The translations under genes were made by a program, and so were the position numbers. A DNA stretch of 32,000 nucleotides from an uncultured Acidobacteriota bacterium. Its GTDB lineage: Bacteria; Acidobacteriota; Terriglobia; Terriglobales; Acidobacteriaceae. The DNA lies in contig CAVOKO010000012.1 in NCBI GenBank assembly GCA_963696525.1, positions 955,558-987,557 of the forward strand. The letters run 5' to 3'. The notes beneath the pieces were generated by a model. The model had not been told where the DNA came from, did not search any database, and saw only the letters and a list, made by a program, of their open reading frames with translations. The stretch's first letter is position 1, and every line of letters begins with the position of its first letter. Below, piece after piece: positions 14,251 to 19,696 of the stretch.

Positions 14251-15132
14251 TCAGCGATGCCGTCCGGAACGATTGCTGGATTGGTCGAATTGCGCTTCGG
14301 ACAGGGCGGAACTCAGGCTGCCGATTTGCCGTTGAATTTCCGCCAGGGCTCGCCGGATGTTGTCGCCGTTGGTAGCGAGGATGTCGCGCCAGACAAGGGG
14401 ATCGCTCTTGGCCAGGCGTGTCATATCGCGCAAGCCGCCGCCGCAGGGAATGCGACTGTAGCCGTCGTCGCCGGCATCCACTCTGAGTTCGCCAAGCACG
14501 GTGTTGGCCAGAGCGATCGACAATAGCTGCGGCAGGTGACTGGTGAAGGCGAGCACGAGGTCGTGCTCTGCGGGCGTCATGCAGACGGGCGAAGCCCCAA
14601 TTTTGCGGATCAACTCCATCCAGCCGGCGTGCAGGGAAGTGGGGGCCGGAGAAGAGGCGGAGGGTCCGGCTGCGATTCGATAGGCGTGAACACCCACTTT
14701 GCCCCGCGAAACAGGTAAGGGTCGGCTTGCTCGATGCCGTGCGTTCCTTGCCCGAAATCGGATGGCCGGGCAGAAATCGCCGCTGCGCGGGCGCGCCGAA
14801 GACGTTTCTGGCTTGGCTTGGGCGACGATCTCAACCTTGGTACTGCCGGTGTCGGTGATGAGCGCCTGTGCGGGAGCGTGTTTAGCGACCACCGGCAACA
14901 GTGCAAGAATCGAAGAAATCGGGGTCGACAGCACGATCACGTCGGCATCCCGGACGGCACTCTCGATTGCTGGCGCCGCGCGATCGATCGCTCCCAACCG
15001 GACTGCCTTTTCGAGCACTTCCGGCGCGTCGCTGCCAGCGATTCCGCCGCGAAATCCCGCGGTCCGCAGAGCGGCGCCGAGTGACCCGCCAATCAGCCCG
15101 CAGCCGACAATCGCGATCTTACTGATTTGCAT
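14251..15132 (-). CDS. tyrA: prephenate dehydrogenase; the ORF is open but ~75 central codons are out of frame (three compensating 1-nt deletions)
   Basis: ATG 15132 gives MQISKIAIVGCGLIGGSLGAAL (Rossmann motif). The C-terminus reads WMELIRKIGASPVCMTPAEHDLVLAFTSHLPQLL...GGGLRDMTRLAKSDPLVWRDI. The conserved core is only readable in the other two frames: NVFGAPAQRRFLPGHPISGKERT, then GIEQADPYLFRGAKWVFTPI (about 14810-14650). Confidence 0.8.
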   Translation of the reverse strand: MQISKIAIVGCGLIGGSLGAALRTAGFRGGIAGSDAPEVLEKAVRLGAIDRAAPAIESAVRDADVIVLSTPISSILALLPVVAKHAPAQALITDTGSTKVEIVAQAKPETSSARPRSGDFCPAIRFRARNARHRASRPLPVSRGKVGVHAYRIAAGPSASSPAPTSLHAGWMELIRKIGASPVCMTPAEHDLVLAFTSHLPQLLSIALANTVLGELRVDAGDDGYSRIPCGGGLRDMTRLAKSDPLVWRDILATNGDNIRRALAEIQRQIGSLSSALSEAQFDQSSNRSGRHR

Positions 15133-16189
15133 GCATGATCTCACGCCGCCGTGGCGCGGGTTGCGGAAGCGCGGACAGCCGCGCCTGCACTCTACGCACC
15201 GGCTCGGCCAGCCCTCTCATTAGCTTTGCGAACTCGGCGATGTTGAGAGACTGCGCGCCATCGGACAAAGCATTTTCCGGATTGGGATGCACTTCGAGCA
15301 GCAGTCCATCGGCCCCGGCGGCCAGTGCGGCTCGCGAGACTGCTGGAACCAGATCGCGTCTGCCGGTGGCGTGCGAAGGATCGGCCAACACGGGAAGATG
15401 CGTAAGCTGCCTGGCCAGCGCCACGGCGCCGATGTCGAACGTATTGCGGGTTTCAGTACCCGAGCCTTTGATGCCGCGTTCGCACAGGATCACGTTGGGA
15501 TTCCCGCCCGCCAGCAGATATTCGGCCGCCAGCAGCCATTCCTCGACGCTGGCCGCCGGATTGCGCTTGAGCAAAACGGGCTTGTCCACGGTCGCAAGCC
15601 GTCGAAGCAGCGCGAAGTTCTGCATGTTCCGCGCTCCCACCTGTAACACATCGGCGTACTCGCAGACGGTCTCGACATCATCGGTGCTCAGCACCTCGGT
15701 AACGATCGGCAAGCCGGTTTCTTCGCGGGCTTCGGCCAGCAGCTTCAGGCCCTTCACTCCCAGTCCCTGGAACTCGTAAGGCGATGTGCGGGGCTTGTAC
15801 GCGCCTCCGCGCAGCATGGTGGCGCCGCCGTCCCGCACTCCGCGGGCCGCGGCCATCAACTGTTCGCGAGATTCCACCGAACACGGCCCGGCGATCACGA
15901 CCGCCGTCTCGCCGCCGATCTCGACATCGCCCACCCTGACGATGGTCCGCTGCTTGCGGGATTGTATCGAAGCCAGCTTGAAACGATGAGTGACGTTGAT
16001 GAGCGAGTCCACGGCCGGCAGCAGGCGCAGAGCCTGGTCGCCGTTACCATCGAGTCTGGACTGGTTCGTTACCACCACGATGCGGCTCGCTTCGCGCACC
16101 ACATGGGCCTGAATACCGCGATTCTGAAGGTTGGAGACAACTCGCAGGACATCCTCGCGTGTTGCCGTATTCCGCATGCTGACCAACAT
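15119..16189 (-). CDS. aroF: 3-deoxy-7-phosphoheptulonate (DAHP) synthase, type I-beta, with an N-terminal ferredoxin/ACT-like regulatory domain
   Basis: ATG 16189 is preceded by GAGGAG. The N-terminal ~70 aa (MLVSMRNTATREDVLRVVSNLQNRGIQAHVV...) precede the KDO8P/DAHPS-like barrel (VIAGPCSVESREQL, LRGGAYKPRTSPYEFQGLG, LQVGARNMQNF, CERGI, DPSHATGRRD), as in Thermotoga-type DAH7PS. Confidence 0.9.
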   Translation of the reverse strand: MLVSMRNTATREDVLRVVSNLQNRGIQAHVVREASRIVVVTNQSRLDGNGDQALRLLPAVDSLINVTHRFKLASIQSRKQRTIVRVGDVEIGGETAVVIAGPCSVESREQLMAAARGVRDGGATMLRGGAYKPRTSPYEFQGLGVKGLKLLAEAREETGLPIVTEVLSTDDVETVCEYADVLQVGARNMQNFALLRRLATVDKPVLLKRNPAASVEEWLLAAEYLLAGGNPNVILCERGIKGSGTETRNTFDIGAVALARQLTHLPVLADPSHATGRRDLVPAVSRAALAAGADGLLLEVHPNPENALSDGAQSLNIAEFAKLMRGLAEPVRRVQARLSALPQPAPRRREIMHANQ

Positions 16190-16200
16190 GATGACTCCTC

Positions 16201-17094
16201 TTATTTGTGCTGTTCCCGGCTGGTGTTGCAGGACCCGAGATACCTTAATTCCGCGTTCATCGCGTGCAATGGCCCGGCCACGCAGGCTTCCAGTTTTTGC
16301 CTGGAGGCCGCCACGTCGAGGAAGAACCGGTACTGCCAAGGCGTGCCCTTGATCGGACGGCTTACCAGGCTCAGTAAATCGATTTGAGAATTGGCGAACG
16401 GCGCCAGCGCGTGATAAAGCGATCCGGGCCGGTTCGGGAGCGTCAGCGCAATCGTCGAGGTCGTGTTGTCGGCATGTATTTTCACCGCGGGCGACAGCAG
16501 GGCGAAGCGCGTGAAGTTGTTGCGAAAGTCTTCGATATGTTCCAGCAGGATCGAACCGCCATAGAGTTCGGCCGCCTCGCTGCCGGCGATGGCTGCTCGT
16601 GAACGGTCGCCGGCGTTGATCACCGCTTGCACGCTTCCCGCCGTGTCATCGGCCACCTTGCGCATGATGTGTGGGTAATTGGCGAAGAAGCGCTCGCACT
16701 GTGCCAGGGCGACGGGGTGCGATTCGACCTCCCGGACATCTTCGAGTTTCGCTTGCGGAACGGCGATCAGACAATGCGAGATCTGGAGAACGGTCTCGTC
16801 GATGATGCTCAGTCCGGCATCGTAGAGCAGGTCGTAACATTGATAGACGGTTCCCGCCAGGGTGTTTTCCAGCGGGGCGACGATATAGTCGGCGCGATTT
16901 TCGCCGATGGCGCTGAACAGAGTCTCGAAATCCCTGCATTCGACGGGGATCGCGCCGGCGGGAAACAGGCGGCGAACCGCGGTCTCGCTGAAGGCTCCGC
17001 GGCGGCCCTGGAAGGCGACTCGCGGCGACCTTGGGTCCGCAACCACCTCCGTTGTCGCCGTGGCCGGAGCAGCGGACTTGGAGGAGTCGCTCAC
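16201..17094 (-). CDS. pheA: prephenate dehydratase (PDT plus ACT domains)
   Basis: 297 aa: VAFQGRRGAFSETA, PLENTLAGTV, ESHPVALAQC, TRFALL, and the ACT region PNRPGSLYHALAPFA...SRP...WQYRFFLD. The start overlaps the chorismate mutase stop (ATGA 17091-17094). Confidence 0.9.
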   Translation of the reverse strand: MSDSSKSAAPATATTEVVADPRSPRVAFQGRRGAFSETAVRRLFPAGAIPVECRDFETLFSAIGENRADYIVAPLENTLAGTVYQCYDLLYDAGLSIIDETVLQISHCLIAVPQAKLEDVREVESHPVALAQCERFFANYPHIMRKVADDTAGSVQAVINAGDRSRAAIAGSEAAELYGGSILLEHIEDFRNNFTRFALLSPAVKIHADNTTSTIALTLPNRPGSLYHALAPFANSQIDLLSLVSRPIKGTPWQYRFFLDVAASRQKLEACVAGPLHAMNAELRYLGSCNTSREQHK

Positions 17095-17360
17095 GCCCTG
17101 CTCTCCTGAATGCGTCGTGATTCGCGGATGATGCTGCGGAAGATGGCGGCTACGCTCCTGGTGTTGAGCGGGCCCCGGTTTTGCTCGCGCAAGCGCCGCA
17201 AGACCTCCGCTTCGCGGGTGCCGTCGAGCACCGGCATTCTGTGTTCCCGCTTGAGTTTGCCGATATCCTCGACAATGCGGGCGCGTTGGTTCAGCAAGTC
17301 GAGCAGCCTCTGGTCAATTTCGTCAATCTCAGCGCGCCGTCGCCAAATCCTCGGTGTCAT
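17091..17360 (-). CDS. chorismate mutase, AroQ class (monofunctional)
   Basis: 89 aa: RRRAEIDEIDQRLLDLLNQRARIVEDIGKLKREHRMPVLDGTREAEVLRRL, the typical AroQ helical motif. Strong SD GAGAGGAG upstream. Confidence 0.85.
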   Translation of the reverse strand: MTPRIWRRRAEIDEIDQRLLDLLNQRARIVEDIGKLKREHRMPVLDGTREAEVLRRLREQNRGPLNTRSVAAIFRSIIRESRRIQESRA

Positions 17361-17400
17361 CGGCCGTCTCCTCTCAAGTCCTTTTCCGATTCACTATCCA

Positions 17401-17437
17401 AAAACAAAAAAGCCGCGACTTTGTGAGTCGCGGCTTT
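17401..17437 (-). terminator. intrinsic terminator acting as the attenuator stem (helix 3:4) upstream of the aromatic operon
   Basis: Minus strand: AAAGCCGCGACU cacaa AGUCGCGGCUUU followed by UUUGUUUU. This is a 10-bp GC-rich stem plus A-U extension with a 5-nt loop and a U-tract. It lies 41 nt upstream of the chorismate mutase ATG and 22 nt downstream of the leader-ORF stop. Confidence 0.75.
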
Positions 17438-17459
17438 CGAAGCTTTGCTGGTTGAGACT

Positions 17460-17579
17460 TTAGGTTTCCATCACCCCAGCACACGAGCCTCGGTCGGCCG
17501 CCACTCTAAAGTAGTAGCGGTAAGCGTATCCGAAGCTAAATCGATAAGTGTGCATGAACGTAACGGTCCAACCCGACAT
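17460..17579 (-). CDS. candidate Phe/Tyr-rich leader peptide (39 codons) of the aromatic-operon attenuator
   Basis: Below the ORF-track size cut-off; read by hand: ATG TCG GGT TGG ACC GTT ACG TTC ATG CAC ACT TAT CGA TTT AGC TTC GGA TAC GCT TAC CGC TAC TAC TTT AGA GTG ... TAA = MSGWTVTFMHTYRFSFGYAYRYYFRVAADRGSCAGVMET. 10 of the first 24 residues are aromatic. Alternative helices overlap the Tyr codons. Confidence 0.6.
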   Translation of the reverse strand: MSGWTVTFMHTYRFSFGYAYRYYFRVAADRGSCAGVMET

Positions 17580-17584
17580 CAATT

Positions 17585-17613
17585 AACTTAGCGGCGTTCT
17601 TTCGAAAAGTCAA
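17585..17613 (-). promoter_or_regulatory. candidate promoter of the leader/aromatic operon
   Basis: Minus strand: TTGACT (17613-17608), 17 nt, TAAGTT (17590-17585). The -10 element ends 5 nt before the leader ATG, and there is no SD between them. Confidence 0.35.
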
Positions 17614-17855
17614 CTACCCGAAAGTGTTACGGGAGAGAACGAGATCGCCGGGCGCGCAGCTCTCGTGTTACGCCAATTCTACTGAACGCGCAGCCCGCTC
17701 GAAACGGCGATAAAATAAAGCTGCCGATTACGGATCGTGCGCGCCGCCGCGCGAACTTGTGATTCAATCGCGATTGCTTATGAAGACACAACAAATATAG
17801 CTTTGACTAATTGCATGCGGCATAAGAAATTCATGGACAAGGTGATAAGGTAACG

Positions 17856-17889
17856 ATCCTGCCGATTGCTGGGGCAGGATTTTCGCTAT
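17856..17889 (+). promoter_or_regulatory. terminator-like hairpin in the ilvD 5' leader (weak attenuator candidate)
   Basis: ATCCTGCC (17856-17863) pairs with GGCAGGAT (17873-17880) with a 9-nt loop, followed by TTTCGCTAT. It sits ~95 nt upstream of the ilvD ATG, directly after a 12-codon ORF (MRHKKFMDKVIR*). Confidence 0.25.
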
Positions 17890-17983
17890 GCCATGAGGCC
17901 TTGTGCCACCCGACGCGGCTGCTGCCGGAGCGCAGCGCGTCATCTCTTGGGCAGATTTAACCAAATTGTAAGGCGAATGAACG

Positions 17984-19696
17984 ATGGAAAAGAAAGATCT
18001 CAAGCACCGTAGCCGGGCTCTTACCGAAGGCTCTCATCGCGCGCCCGCTCGCGCCATGTTCAAAGCCGTTGGCTTTGGCGACGATGACCTGCAGAAACCT
18101 CTGGTCGCGATCGCCAACACCTGGACCGAAATCGGCCCCTGCAACTTCCATCTTCGCGAACTCGCGGCGGCCGTAAAGCAAGGGATTCGCGCCGCCGGCG
18201 GCACGCCGATGGAGTTCAACACTATCTCCATCAACGACGGCATCACCATGGGGACGGAGGGAATGAAGGCCTCGCTGATCAGCCGCGAAGTGATCGCCGA
18301 TTCCATCGAACTGGTAGCCGGCGGCCACATGTTCGACGCCGTCGTGGCGCTTTCCAGTTGCGACAAGACGATTCCCGGAACCGTGATGGCGCTGGCACGT
18401 CTCGATGTCCCGTCGCTTATGCTCTACGGCGGATCGATAGCACCGGGGCAGTTTCACGGACGCCAGGTTTCCATCCAGGACGTCTTCGAGGCGGTCGGCG
18501 CAAATGCCAAGGGAATCATGTCGGACGCGGATCTCAAGGACATGGAAGACCATGCCTGTCCGGGACCCGGCGCGTGCGGCGGTCAGTTCACGGCCAACAC
18601 GATGGCTACCGCCTGCGAGTTTCTCGGAATCTCCCCACTCGGCAGCAACAGCATTGCCGCCATGGCAGAGCAGAAACGAAAGGCAGCCTACGACGCCGGC
18701 CTGCAAGTGATGGAGTTGCTCAGACAGGACATTCGCCCGTCACGGATACTCACACTGGAAGCCTTCCAGAATGCCGCCGCCAGCGTTTCCGCTTCGGGTG
18801 GTTCCAGCAATGCGGTGCTTCATCTGCTTGCGATTGCCCACGAAGTTGGCGTAGCTTTCACGATGGACGATCTTGACCGCATTTTTGCCAAGGTGCCGCT
18901 GCTTTGCGACCTGAAGCCGGGCGGACGTTACATGGCAACCGATTACGCGGCCGCGGGCGGTTCCAGGCTGCTGGCCAAGCGTCTGTCGGATCTCGGAGTG
19001 CTCAACCGCTCCGCCATTACGGCCAGCGCGCGCACCATCGGGGAAGAGGCTGACAAAGCGCAGGAAACTCCCGGGCAGGCGGTGATTCGTACGCTGGACA
19101 AGGCGATTAAGCCGAGCGGAGGACTCGCAATTCTCAAGGGCAATCTTGCGCCGGAAGGCTGCGTGGTCAAGCTTGTCGGGCATGATCGCCTTCAGCATCG
19201 CGGCCCGGCGCGGGTTTTCGAGTCGGAAGAGCAGGCTTTCGATGCGGTACAGAAGGGCAAGATCAATTCCGGCGACGTGATCGTAATCCGCAACGAGGGC
19301 CCGCGCGGCGGTCCGGGGATGCGCGAGATGCTGGCCGTAACCGGTGCGATTGCAGGCACTCCTTTGACGAAGGAAGTTGCGTTGATTACCGACGGCCGTT
19401 TTTCCGGCGCCACCTATGGCTTTATGGTGGCACATGTGGCACCGGAAGCCGCCATGGGAGGACCGATCGCGGTGGTTCGGGAAGGTGATCCGATTCTGAT
19501 CGACGCTTCACGCAAAACCATTGCAGTGGAAATTCCGCGGGCAGAACTCGAACGGCGGCTGGCTGCCTGGAAGCCAGGGCCTCCGCGCTATCGATCCGGA
19601 GTCTATGCCAAGTATGCCGCTGCGGTTTCATCCGCTTCCCGGGGCGCGGTGACCCATGCGGGCCGCGAAGCAAAAACCGCTTCCACGGTAAAGTGA
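17984..19696 (+). CDS. ilvD: dihydroxy-acid dehydratase
   Basis: 570 aa: [70 protein letters not shown]. Canonical IlvD. Confidence 0.95.

Follow-up and report, generated by a model that had tools for sequence, protein, structure and literature searches.

Among described regulators, the pheL-pheA leader of Escherichia coli and the Gammaproteobacteria comes nearest to the element reported here, both in the gene it regulates and in its logic. Its short open reading frame (ORF) holds codons for the end product, its regions 1 to 4 form alternative terminator and antiterminator structures, and it controls the chorismate mutase/prephenate dehydratase gene. The closest precedent for a mixed sensor is aroR-aroF of Corynebacterium glutamicum, a Phe/Tyr leader upstream of a 3-deoxy-D-arabino-heptulosonate 7-phosphate (DAHP) synthase operon; in the work of Neshat et al. 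(2014), as summarised in PMC11802643, ribosome stalling at a Phe-Tyr-Phe leader raises transcription, and aroR was reported to respond to Phe, not Tyr, limitation. The four-region logic, with the leading ribosome kinetically coupled to RNA polymerase, is shared by trpL, hisL and pheM (pheST) of Proteobacteria and trpL of Actinobacteria, as outlined in PMC1183508 and PMC1262725. The Tyr/Phe T-box leaders that precede aromatic biosynthesis genes in Firmicutes are functional analogues, since there too tRNA charging decides whether the 5′ leader of an amino-acid gene adopts the terminator or the antiterminator, and exchanges between T-boxes and leader peptides have been described (PMC2965389). A survey of 2010 contained almost no acidobacterial attenuators with an assigned function, leader peptides being known at that time mainly from Proteobacteria and Actinobacteria (PMC2965389). 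The present analysis concerns a minus-strand leader in a 32,000-nt stretch of DNA (the window) from an uncultured Acidobacteriota bacterium (assembly GCA_963696525.1, contig CAVOKO010000012.1, positions 955,558 to 987,557), located upstream of an operon for chorismate mutase (CM), prephenate dehydratase (PDT), DAHP synthase (DAHPS) and prephenate dehydrogenase (PDH, TyrA).

Acidobacteriota rank with the most abundant bacteria of soils, and their gene regulation is almost unexplored. As judged by sequence comparison, the leader is the first example of a conserved and so far uncatalogued family spanning Acidobacteriota, and it very probably works as a ribosome-mediated transcription attenuator that responds to the charging of tRNA-Phe and tRNA-Tyr. 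The kind of regulator is known, its mechanism being classical; the phylum-wide acidobacterial family is new. The phylum thereby gains a testable cis-regulatory family, with Phe-/Tyr-tRNA charging as predicted input and the CM-PDT-DAHPS-PDH operon as predicted output.

The locus shares no sequence or structure homology with pheL, which is Phe-only, has about 15 codons and is known from the gamma subdivision, whereas the acidobacterial leader has 31 codons in which Phe and Tyr are interleaved with other residues and in which regions 1 and 2 both lie. Its operon also includes DAHPS and TyrA, while E. coli aroF is controlled by the repressors TyrR and TrpR. Unlike trpL, hisL and pheM, it concerns another amino acid and other lineages, and its stop codon comes after region 2; the stop codon of E. 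coli trpL sits between regions 1 and 2. A non-stalled ribosome would therefore cover region 2 directly. T-boxes differ in working without an ORF, by direct binding of uncharged tRNA. Compared by description only, and within what PMC11802643 relates of it, aroR is actinobacterial with three aromatic codons, whereas the acidobacterial leaders have 6–9, with a Tyr share that varies with the operon. An initial reading of the letters alone (the sequence-only reading) had proposed a mixed Phe+Tyr sensor matching an operon that serves both branches; a mixed Phe+Tyr run is present and does match the operon, but such a leader is precedented by aroR, on that same summary (PMC11802643). That reading had also known of no leader described for this operon layout or lineage, and our literature search likewise found no description of an acidobacterial Phe/Tyr leader, although Lopatovskaya et al. 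(2010), a broad Russian-language attenuator survey, may contain one. The elements of the leader are as follows.

17585–17613, minus strand: putative sigma-70-type promoter, with −35 TTGACT at 17613–17608, a 17-nt spacer and −10 TAAGTT at 17590–17585.
17556–17579, minus strand: upstream in-frame extension MSGWTVTF, probably non-coding 5′ untranslated region; variable in relatives, in which the core is near-invariant.
17460–17555, minus strand: leader ORF MHTYRFSFGYAYRYYFRVAADRGSCAGVMET, 31 codons plus stop, with 5 Tyr and 3 Phe in codons 4–16.
17513–17553, minus strand: region 1 (inside the ORF, codons 1–15), comprising GCACAC 17553–17548, AGCUUCGG 17537–17530, CG 17526–17525 and CCGCUACU 17520–17513.
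17476–17506, minus strand: region 2 (inside the ORF, pairing with either region 1 or region 3), comprising GAGU/AGUGGCGG(C) 17506–17497 and C(C)GAGGCU 17493–17486.
17476–17506, minus strand: region 2 (continued), also comprising GUGUGC 17484–17479 and UGCUGG 17481–17476.
17425–17451, minus strand: region 3 (contains the terminator 5′ arm), comprising CCAGCA 17451–17446, AGCUUCG 17444–17438, GCCGC 17434–17430 and ACUC 17428–25.
17401–17438, minus strand: intrinsic terminator (3:4), 13-bp stem GAAAGCCGCGACU / AGUCGCGGCUUUU, loop CACAA, U-run to 17401.

PDT-based searches, consisting of a one-genome-per-species scan and a metagenome scan that added 80, provided 96 loci. The nearest relatives in the PDT scan were Candidatus Korobacteraceae (L001–L007 and L014, PDT 78–95% identical), and the same scan also gave an Acidiferrales genome (L008, 52%) and eight loci of other phyla. 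The common layout of promoter, ATG, Phe/Tyr run, stop, terminator and chorismate mutase was present in 13 close relatives and in about 45 distinct distant ones with PDT approximately 50% identical (~58 loci), and none of the family members examined lacked the terminator. The eight other-phyla loci L009–L016 (Eisenbacteria, Balneolaceae and several Firmicutes) had no such leader upstream of PDT. Close relatives are almost invariant from ATG 17555 to GUGUGC 17479 and from CCAGCA to the terminator, and vary upstream of 17555, at the leader C-terminus and at the stop codon. Distant leader peptides include MHTTRFTFDFFAYRGFTSRSGKTVCASAFRL (L044), MHSLQFYYFAFTYRFSFYGGRDGRSLHARE (L068), MQYFGYFAFTYRFSFAGERAGETRADGTGS (L083) and MRKTSFTFAFTFRFPYRGERPGDARMMQGQYKS (L008); in distant members the terminator core GCCGCGA...UCGCGGC follows the stop codon by 20–50 nt, and chorismate mutase comes next.

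A covariance model (R1) was built from distant members only (alignment A6), leaving out the window's own clade. In the window it gave a single match, at 17403–17555 on the minus strand (74.1 bits, E = 1.3e-21), which was full length (model positions 1–171 of 171), set position 1 on ATG 17555 and lay immediately 5′ of CM-PDT. On the other loci, R1 gave one sense-strand match per expected locus and none in the loci of other phyla; the palindromic terminator also drew weak matches on the reverse strand. R1 is mostly a sequence model, since RNAalifold on the distant-only alignment gave the terminator helix alone.

The family was also visible at the peptide level. A profile search with the 40-aa version of the ORF as first row, run against 5.8 billion proteins, returned 337 sequences at E ≤ 1 (best 5.5e-10). 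Among the 120 matches listed, all were 29–68 aa long and unannotated or "hypothetical"; the match MHLYSSYFAFTYRFPFAGERAGETRADKTSS occurs on 99 contigs. The three matches whose contigs were read (P0032, P0004 and P0025, eight loci) lie directly upstream of CM-PDT-DAHPS, and in the same eight loci ilvD-ilvC is divergent, as is PDH where the flank reaches far enough. One profile match is named Pyrinomonadaceae, and the family therefore spans at least the classes Terriglobia and Blastocatellia. Hundreds of "hypothetical proteins" of 29–68 aa could thus be re-annotated as leader peptides, and the leader family could seed an Rfam family.

Two further features of these protein sets were observed. Gene callers already predict hundreds of the leader ORFs, some with spurious N-terminal extensions (P0022, P0036 and P0100). 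Two peptide clusters include long proteins (P0123, 556 aa; P0131, 401 aa), which must be mis-clustered or mis-called.

The sequence-only reading had described three mutually exclusive helices. Its 3:4 helix pairs AGCCGCGACU (17435–17426) with AGUCGCGGCU (17420–17411) across a 5-nt loop, followed by UUUUUGUUUU (17410–17401); its remaining segments are region 2, GAGUGGCGGC (17506–17497), region 3, GCCGCGACUC (17434–17425), and region 1, CCGCUACU (17520–17513). All of these coordinates, as well as those of its ORF, agree with the minus-strand sequence, and the three helices exist, but they are longer than the 8–10 bp segments listed. A terminator scan independently called the 13-bp stem at 17438–17408 with its T-run, and the terminator has a folding energy of −21.4 kcal/mol (z = −5.0). 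The 1:2 hairpin (−31.1 kcal/mol) belongs to the minimum free energy structure of the full-length leader; its outer pairs join GCACAC 17553–48 with GUGUGC 17484–79 and AGCUUCGG 17537–30 with CCGAGGCU 17493–86, and its inner pairs join CCGCUACU 17520–13 with AGUGGCGG 17505–498. The 2:3 antiterminator comprises 22 bp in four segments (GAGU:ACUC, GCGGC:GCCGC, CGAGGCU:AGCUUCG and UGCUGG:CCAGCA) and reaches −37.3 kcal/mol (z = −3.7), as stable in none of 200 shuffles. The three helices share overlapping nucleotides, and the antiterminator uses the terminator 5′ arm and is exclusive with 3:4. Regions 1 and 3 resemble each other (AGCUUCGG..CCGCUAC versus AGCUUCGA..GCCGCGAC), which would follow if both pair with region 2. 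The whole 206-nt leader folds at −75.3 kcal/mol (z = −4.35), again as stable in 0/200 shuffles.

Because the helices shift between sub-families, an alignment-free duplex test was used, in which the duplex energy of a region with its own partner was compared with that obtained with the partners of other leaders, over 22 non-redundant leaders. Regions 2 and 3 gave −32.4 kcal/mol for cognate against −26.7 kcal/mol for non-cognate partners (z = −7.0, 0/5000 permutations), and regions 1 and 2 gave z = −4.6. The positive control, regions 3 and 4, gave z = −7.6, and the negative controls had no cognate advantage (regions 1 and 3, z = +0.3; regions 2 and 4, z = +2.8). Column counts were made on A3, a 44-sequence MAFFT alignment. 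The terminator-state structure had 82.7% of cells paired, compared with 41–52% when the partners were slid, with 21 of its 29 pairs altered on both sides and a covariation score of 0.260 against 0.169 ± 0.009 (0/500 shuffles). Changes on both sides were found in 12 of 16 pairs of helices 1–3 and in 7 of 10 pairs of helix 5, the terminator, where L014 and L021 carry the compensatory change GACU/AGUC to GAUU/AAUC. For the antiterminator consensus, 82.5% of cells were paired, versus 31–51% when slid. Comparing the related upstream regions, a check of the kind suggested by the sequence-only reading, thus showed a conserved F/Y run and co-variation of helices 1:2, 2:3 and 3:4.

The minus-strand frame opened by the ATG at 17579–17577 runs for 39 codons to the stop TAA at 17462–17460 and encodes MSGWTVTFMHTYRFSFGYAYRYYFRVAADRGSCAGVMET; the ORF list gives it as 17460..17582, 40 aa, opened by an in-frame TTG. 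The 39-codon ORF of the sequence-only reading thus exists as a frame, but comparative data put the functional start at an internal ATG. The true start is most likely ATG 17555, which gives 31 codons, because L007 has a 1-nt insertion (frameshift) between both ATGs, L005 reads AAG where the upstream ATG would be, the family alignment begins at 17555, as does the independent covariance model, and the putative transcription start falls at or after 17579. The start at 17579 was rejected in its favor on the frameshift, the lost ATG, the alignment and the model. Trp4 and seven other N-terminal residues are therefore probably outside the peptide.

The aromatic run of the leader is exceptional in the window. 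Eight aromatic residues per 13-codon window occur in one case, the leader, in ~64,000 windows over six frames, and among 491 small ORFs the leader alone has ≥7 aromatics in 12 codons, the runner-up having 5; across the four operon genes, Phe, Tyr and Trp account for 44/1093 codons. The enrichment recognised by the sequence-only reading is therefore far beyond chance, except that the Trp it counted probably lies outside the peptide. No member interrupts the frame from the aligned ATG, indels preserve it (one adds a Phe codon in L006), and the aromatic columns hold Phe or Tyr in 41–45 of 45 sequences, with F and Y exchanging repeatedly. Third codon positions are strongly constrained (one column has TTC in 36/45 sequences, another has TTT in 33, and TAC-CGC occurs in 39–40), as is expected because the coding sequence doubles as region 1 or region 2.

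The composition of the run was related to the content of the operon. The Tyr share of Phe+Tyr codons averaged 0.45 where the operon includes DAHPS (n = 24) and was 0.50–0.67 where PDH is also in the operon (window clade, L039 and L093). In CM-PDT-only operons, in which an unrelated acyltransferase-like gene comes next, the mean was 0.25, typically F5–7 plus Y1 (n = 12; Mann-Whitney p = 0.002, a statistic that ignores phylogeny). Phe-dominated and Phe/Tyr-mixed leaders over differing operons represent a natural experiment on the tuning of attenuator codons.

Ribosome positions were modelled in nine leaders by stepping a footprint of assumed size (A site −15 to +12 nt) through the codons and folding the RNA present before the terminator 3′ arm is transcribed. 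The gain from sequestering the terminator 5′ arm peaked with the A site inside the aromatic run, at 8–12 kcal/mol in the window (Tyr4 to Arg13), 18 in L044, 17 in L008 and 24 in L096. Beyond the run the gain dropped to a low baseline in 8/9 leaders (2–5 kcal/mol in most of the nine); the exception, L039, kept 11–23 kcal/mol at every position. Under the assumed footprint size, a clean in-run peak was obtained in 7 of the 8 other leaders scanned, L039 being the one that lacked it. In this footprint model the effective sensor codons would be Tyr4 to Tyr12.

The following sequence of events is proposed. Transcription would begin ~25 nt upstream of ATG 17555, within the 17580–17576 interval expected from the putative promoter, and RNA polymerase would transcribe the 31-codon leader with its 5 Tyr and 3 Phe in codons 4–16. 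With plentiful Phe and Tyr, or with an untranslated leader, the ribosome would advance over region 2 to the stop codon or region 1 would pair with region 2. Either event would leave region 3 to pair with region 4, and the terminator would halt transcription ~40 nt before chorismate mutase. In folding without a ribosome, 1:2 and 3:4 coexist. Under shortage of Phe-tRNA or Tyr-tRNA, the ribosome would stall with its A site on an aromatic codon from Tyr4 to Tyr12 and mask region 1, leaving region 2 unpaired. Region 2 would then join newly made region 3 in the 22-bp antiterminator, and with the terminator 5′ arm sequestered, the polymerase could enter CM-PDT-DAHPS-PDH. The sequence-only reading had likened the leader to trpL, pheL and hisL, and this comparison is supported by the conserved layout, the co-variation of the helices, the open frame with Phe/Tyr exchange, the Phe:Tyr ratio that tracks operon content and the modelled ribosome positions. 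Its more specific proposal, that a stall on the Phe/Tyr codons frees region 2, was reproduced in the model, under its assumed footprint, for Tyr4–Tyr12 but not for Tyr14, Tyr15 or Phe16.

Several observations weigh against attenuation by a translating ribosome. Tyr14, Tyr15 and Phe16 (31-codon numbering) lie ≤10 nt from region 2 and are at odds with the model, in which a ribosome stalled on them would cover region 2 and read-through would not be favored. When the stalled state is folded with the 3′ arm included, the terminator still forms in most members; equilibrium folding thus favors the terminator, and antitermination must be kinetic, as in known attenuators. Column covariation of the antiterminator is modest (equalled in 10/500 shuffles), and the antiterminator core GCGG:CCGC is invariant. 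No convincing Shine-Dalgarno sequence was seen before ATG 17555 of the window, nor before the leaders of many relatives; that of CM is strong. As a consequence of the third-position constraint, the "peptide motif" is largely an RNA motif and is by itself no proof of translation. The correlation between composition and operon content is qualified by phylogeny, as the CM-PDT-only leaders come mostly from one clade, and by the exceptions L058, L050, L053 and L084. A consensus promoter scan of 17000–18200 called no site, the promoter being weak by consensus. Finally, the analysis shows the sequence elements, the fold energies with their mutual exclusivity, conservation and co-variation across the family, the open frame with its Phe/Tyr exchange and the link between composition and operon content; we infer the promoter, transcription start, ORF translation, termination in vivo and the response to Phe/Tyr supply.

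A translation-independent RNA switch, in which a ligand, uncharged tRNA or a protein selects 2:3 or 3:4 and the ORF is incidental, would account for a leader RNA that is strongly structured and conserved at the nucleotide level, third codon positions included, and for a leader ATG without a clear Shine-Dalgarno sequence. We consider this highly improbable, as the frame from the conserved ATG is open in all ~58 members with indels in frame, the variable aligned positions swap Phe for Tyr rather than arbitrary bases, the Phe:Tyr ratio tracks operon content, the aromatic codons are precisely what the 1:2 pairing covers, and a conserved unpaired pocket or specifier-like loop is missing. No Rfam family, known riboswitches and T-box included, matched the window or ten distant loci at gathering thresholds. 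The model RF01859 (Phe_leader) reached 15.5 bits against a gathering threshold of 55 (E = 8.7) and covered the terminator part only, and the T-box model (RF00230) had no match even at E ≤ 10 in 17300–17900, nor at gathering threshold elsewhere. A known RNA family, T-box or riboswitch was accordingly rejected, the permissive scan of 17300–17900 having given only sub-threshold, terminator-driven matches (among them Thr_leader, 14.8 bits). Weak matches of this type, to small-RNA and terminator-containing models and all far below threshold, could speak for an unregulated locus, with a constitutive partial terminator or small-RNA 3′ end beside an aromatic ORF and alternative pairings that arose by chance. 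It is extremely unlikely that nothing more is present, given that the aromatic density is unique in the window, that the whole architecture, always directly 5′ of CM/PDT, is kept with co-variation across large distances, and that the divergent upstream gene leaves nothing here that would require a terminator.

The peptide itself might instead be the functional product, either as a TnaC-like arrest peptide sensing free Phe/Tyr within the ribosome tunnel or as a trans-acting micro-protein or terminated RNA, with codon-level sensing secondary. The core ..F-A-F-T-Y-R-F.. is recognisable over ~50% PDT divergence, and the profile retrieves 337 homologues. Trans-acting leader peptides and attenuator RNAs are also documented (PMC7298713, PMC6614838), peTrpL and rnTrpL of Sinorhizobium being cases in point. 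Against this, the residues between the aromatics are encoded by region 1/2 nucleotides, and their codons are almost fixed (TAC-CGC 39–40/45), which indicates an RNA constraint rather than a peptide constraint. The window clade, moreover, has FGYAYRY in place of FAFTYRF yet retains the pairings, and C-termini and stop positions vary. On balance, a primary role for the peptide appears very unlikely. For the core in particular, which reads F-A-F-T-Y-R-F ... G-E-R-A-G-E-T-R-A in most members and F-G-Y-A-Y-R-Y-Y-F in the window, there is a slim chance that it acts as an arrest peptide, or that the released peptide or the ~175-nt terminated RNA acts in trans on other aromatic-pathway genes. Were that so, one element would coordinate a split Phe/Tyr regulon, as PDH lies in the divergent ilvD-ilvC operon in many relatives.

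The promoter and genes with which the proposed attenuator would operate were also considered. The promoter at 17585–17613 is proposed from positional conservation only: the −35 element and spacing are kept in all close relatives, in which −10 variants are TAAATT, TAATTT, TAAGAT, TAGATT and TAATAT. It was missed by the consensus scan because the −10 agrees at only 3/6 positions. The tRNA/tmRNA scan found none. Since the upstream gene, ilvD, is divergent, the leader hairpin terminates no other gene. The downstream operon consists of the following genes.

17091–17360, minus strand: chorismate mutase (CM_2), the first regulated gene, with Shine-Dalgarno sequence GAGAGGAG and ATG 40 nt past the U-run.
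16201–17094, minus strand: prephenate dehydratase (PDT) with ACT domain.
15119–16339, minus strand: DAHP synthase (type I-beta, FXD domain); the listed ORF begins at TTG 16339 and overlaps the PDT end by 139 nt.
14251–15144, minus strand: prephenate dehydrogenase (PDH, TyrA).

With its FXD domain beginning only at residue 51, DAHPS probably has its real start near 16200. The position of PDH differs among relatives. It is within the leader-controlled operon in the window clade, L039 and L093, and it closes the divergent ilvD-ilvC operon in 7/8 of L097–L104, the flank of L097 stopping inside ilvC. Tyr synthesis in the latter would therefore stand behind a putative branched-chain leader, not the aromatic one.

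Some loci differ locally around the leader. In L002 (~2050–2400) and L005 (~2020–2360), on the opposite strand upstream of the leader, an ORF beginning MIRRC(D/E)(D/N)RDF(E/D)LIWAIINNGAQAYKGIIPEDRW... replaces the ilvD 5′ region; as these two loci differ past the shared divergent promoter, synteny breaks directly beside the leader. In L024 (~790–850) and L025 (~1585–1640), an insert of ~130 nt between the Phe-leader terminator and CM carries a second, stronger hairpin with a T-run (−24.7 and −28.5 kcal/mol).

A second candidate leader was noted on the ilvD side of the window. Upstream of ilvD (ATG 17984), the plus-strand segment 17803–17886 contains a promoter-like TTGACT, a tiny ORF, MDKVIR, at 17833–17853 and a hairpin with U-run at 17856–17886 (−15.1 kcal/mol); the hairpin and U-run are kept in L001, L003, L006 and L007, whereas the mini-ORF frame is not. 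In distant loci, an Ile/Val/Leu-rich mini-ORF stands before ilvD-ilvC-PDH, namely MTRSISYSVYVIVGWGRPV, MTRPSSIPVHVIIRWGPPV and MTRRILIPVYVASRWGPV (L098:3612–3730, minus strand; L102:3605–3722, minus strand; and L101 in the same intergenic region). The ilvD-side element is probably a branched-chain amino-acid attenuator, and this Ile/Val-rich candidate points to more than one use of leader-peptide attenuation in the lineage. The mini-ORFs of L098 and L102 are followed by strong terminators (−25.2 and −23.8 kcal/mol), and L101 has a similar stem and U-run.

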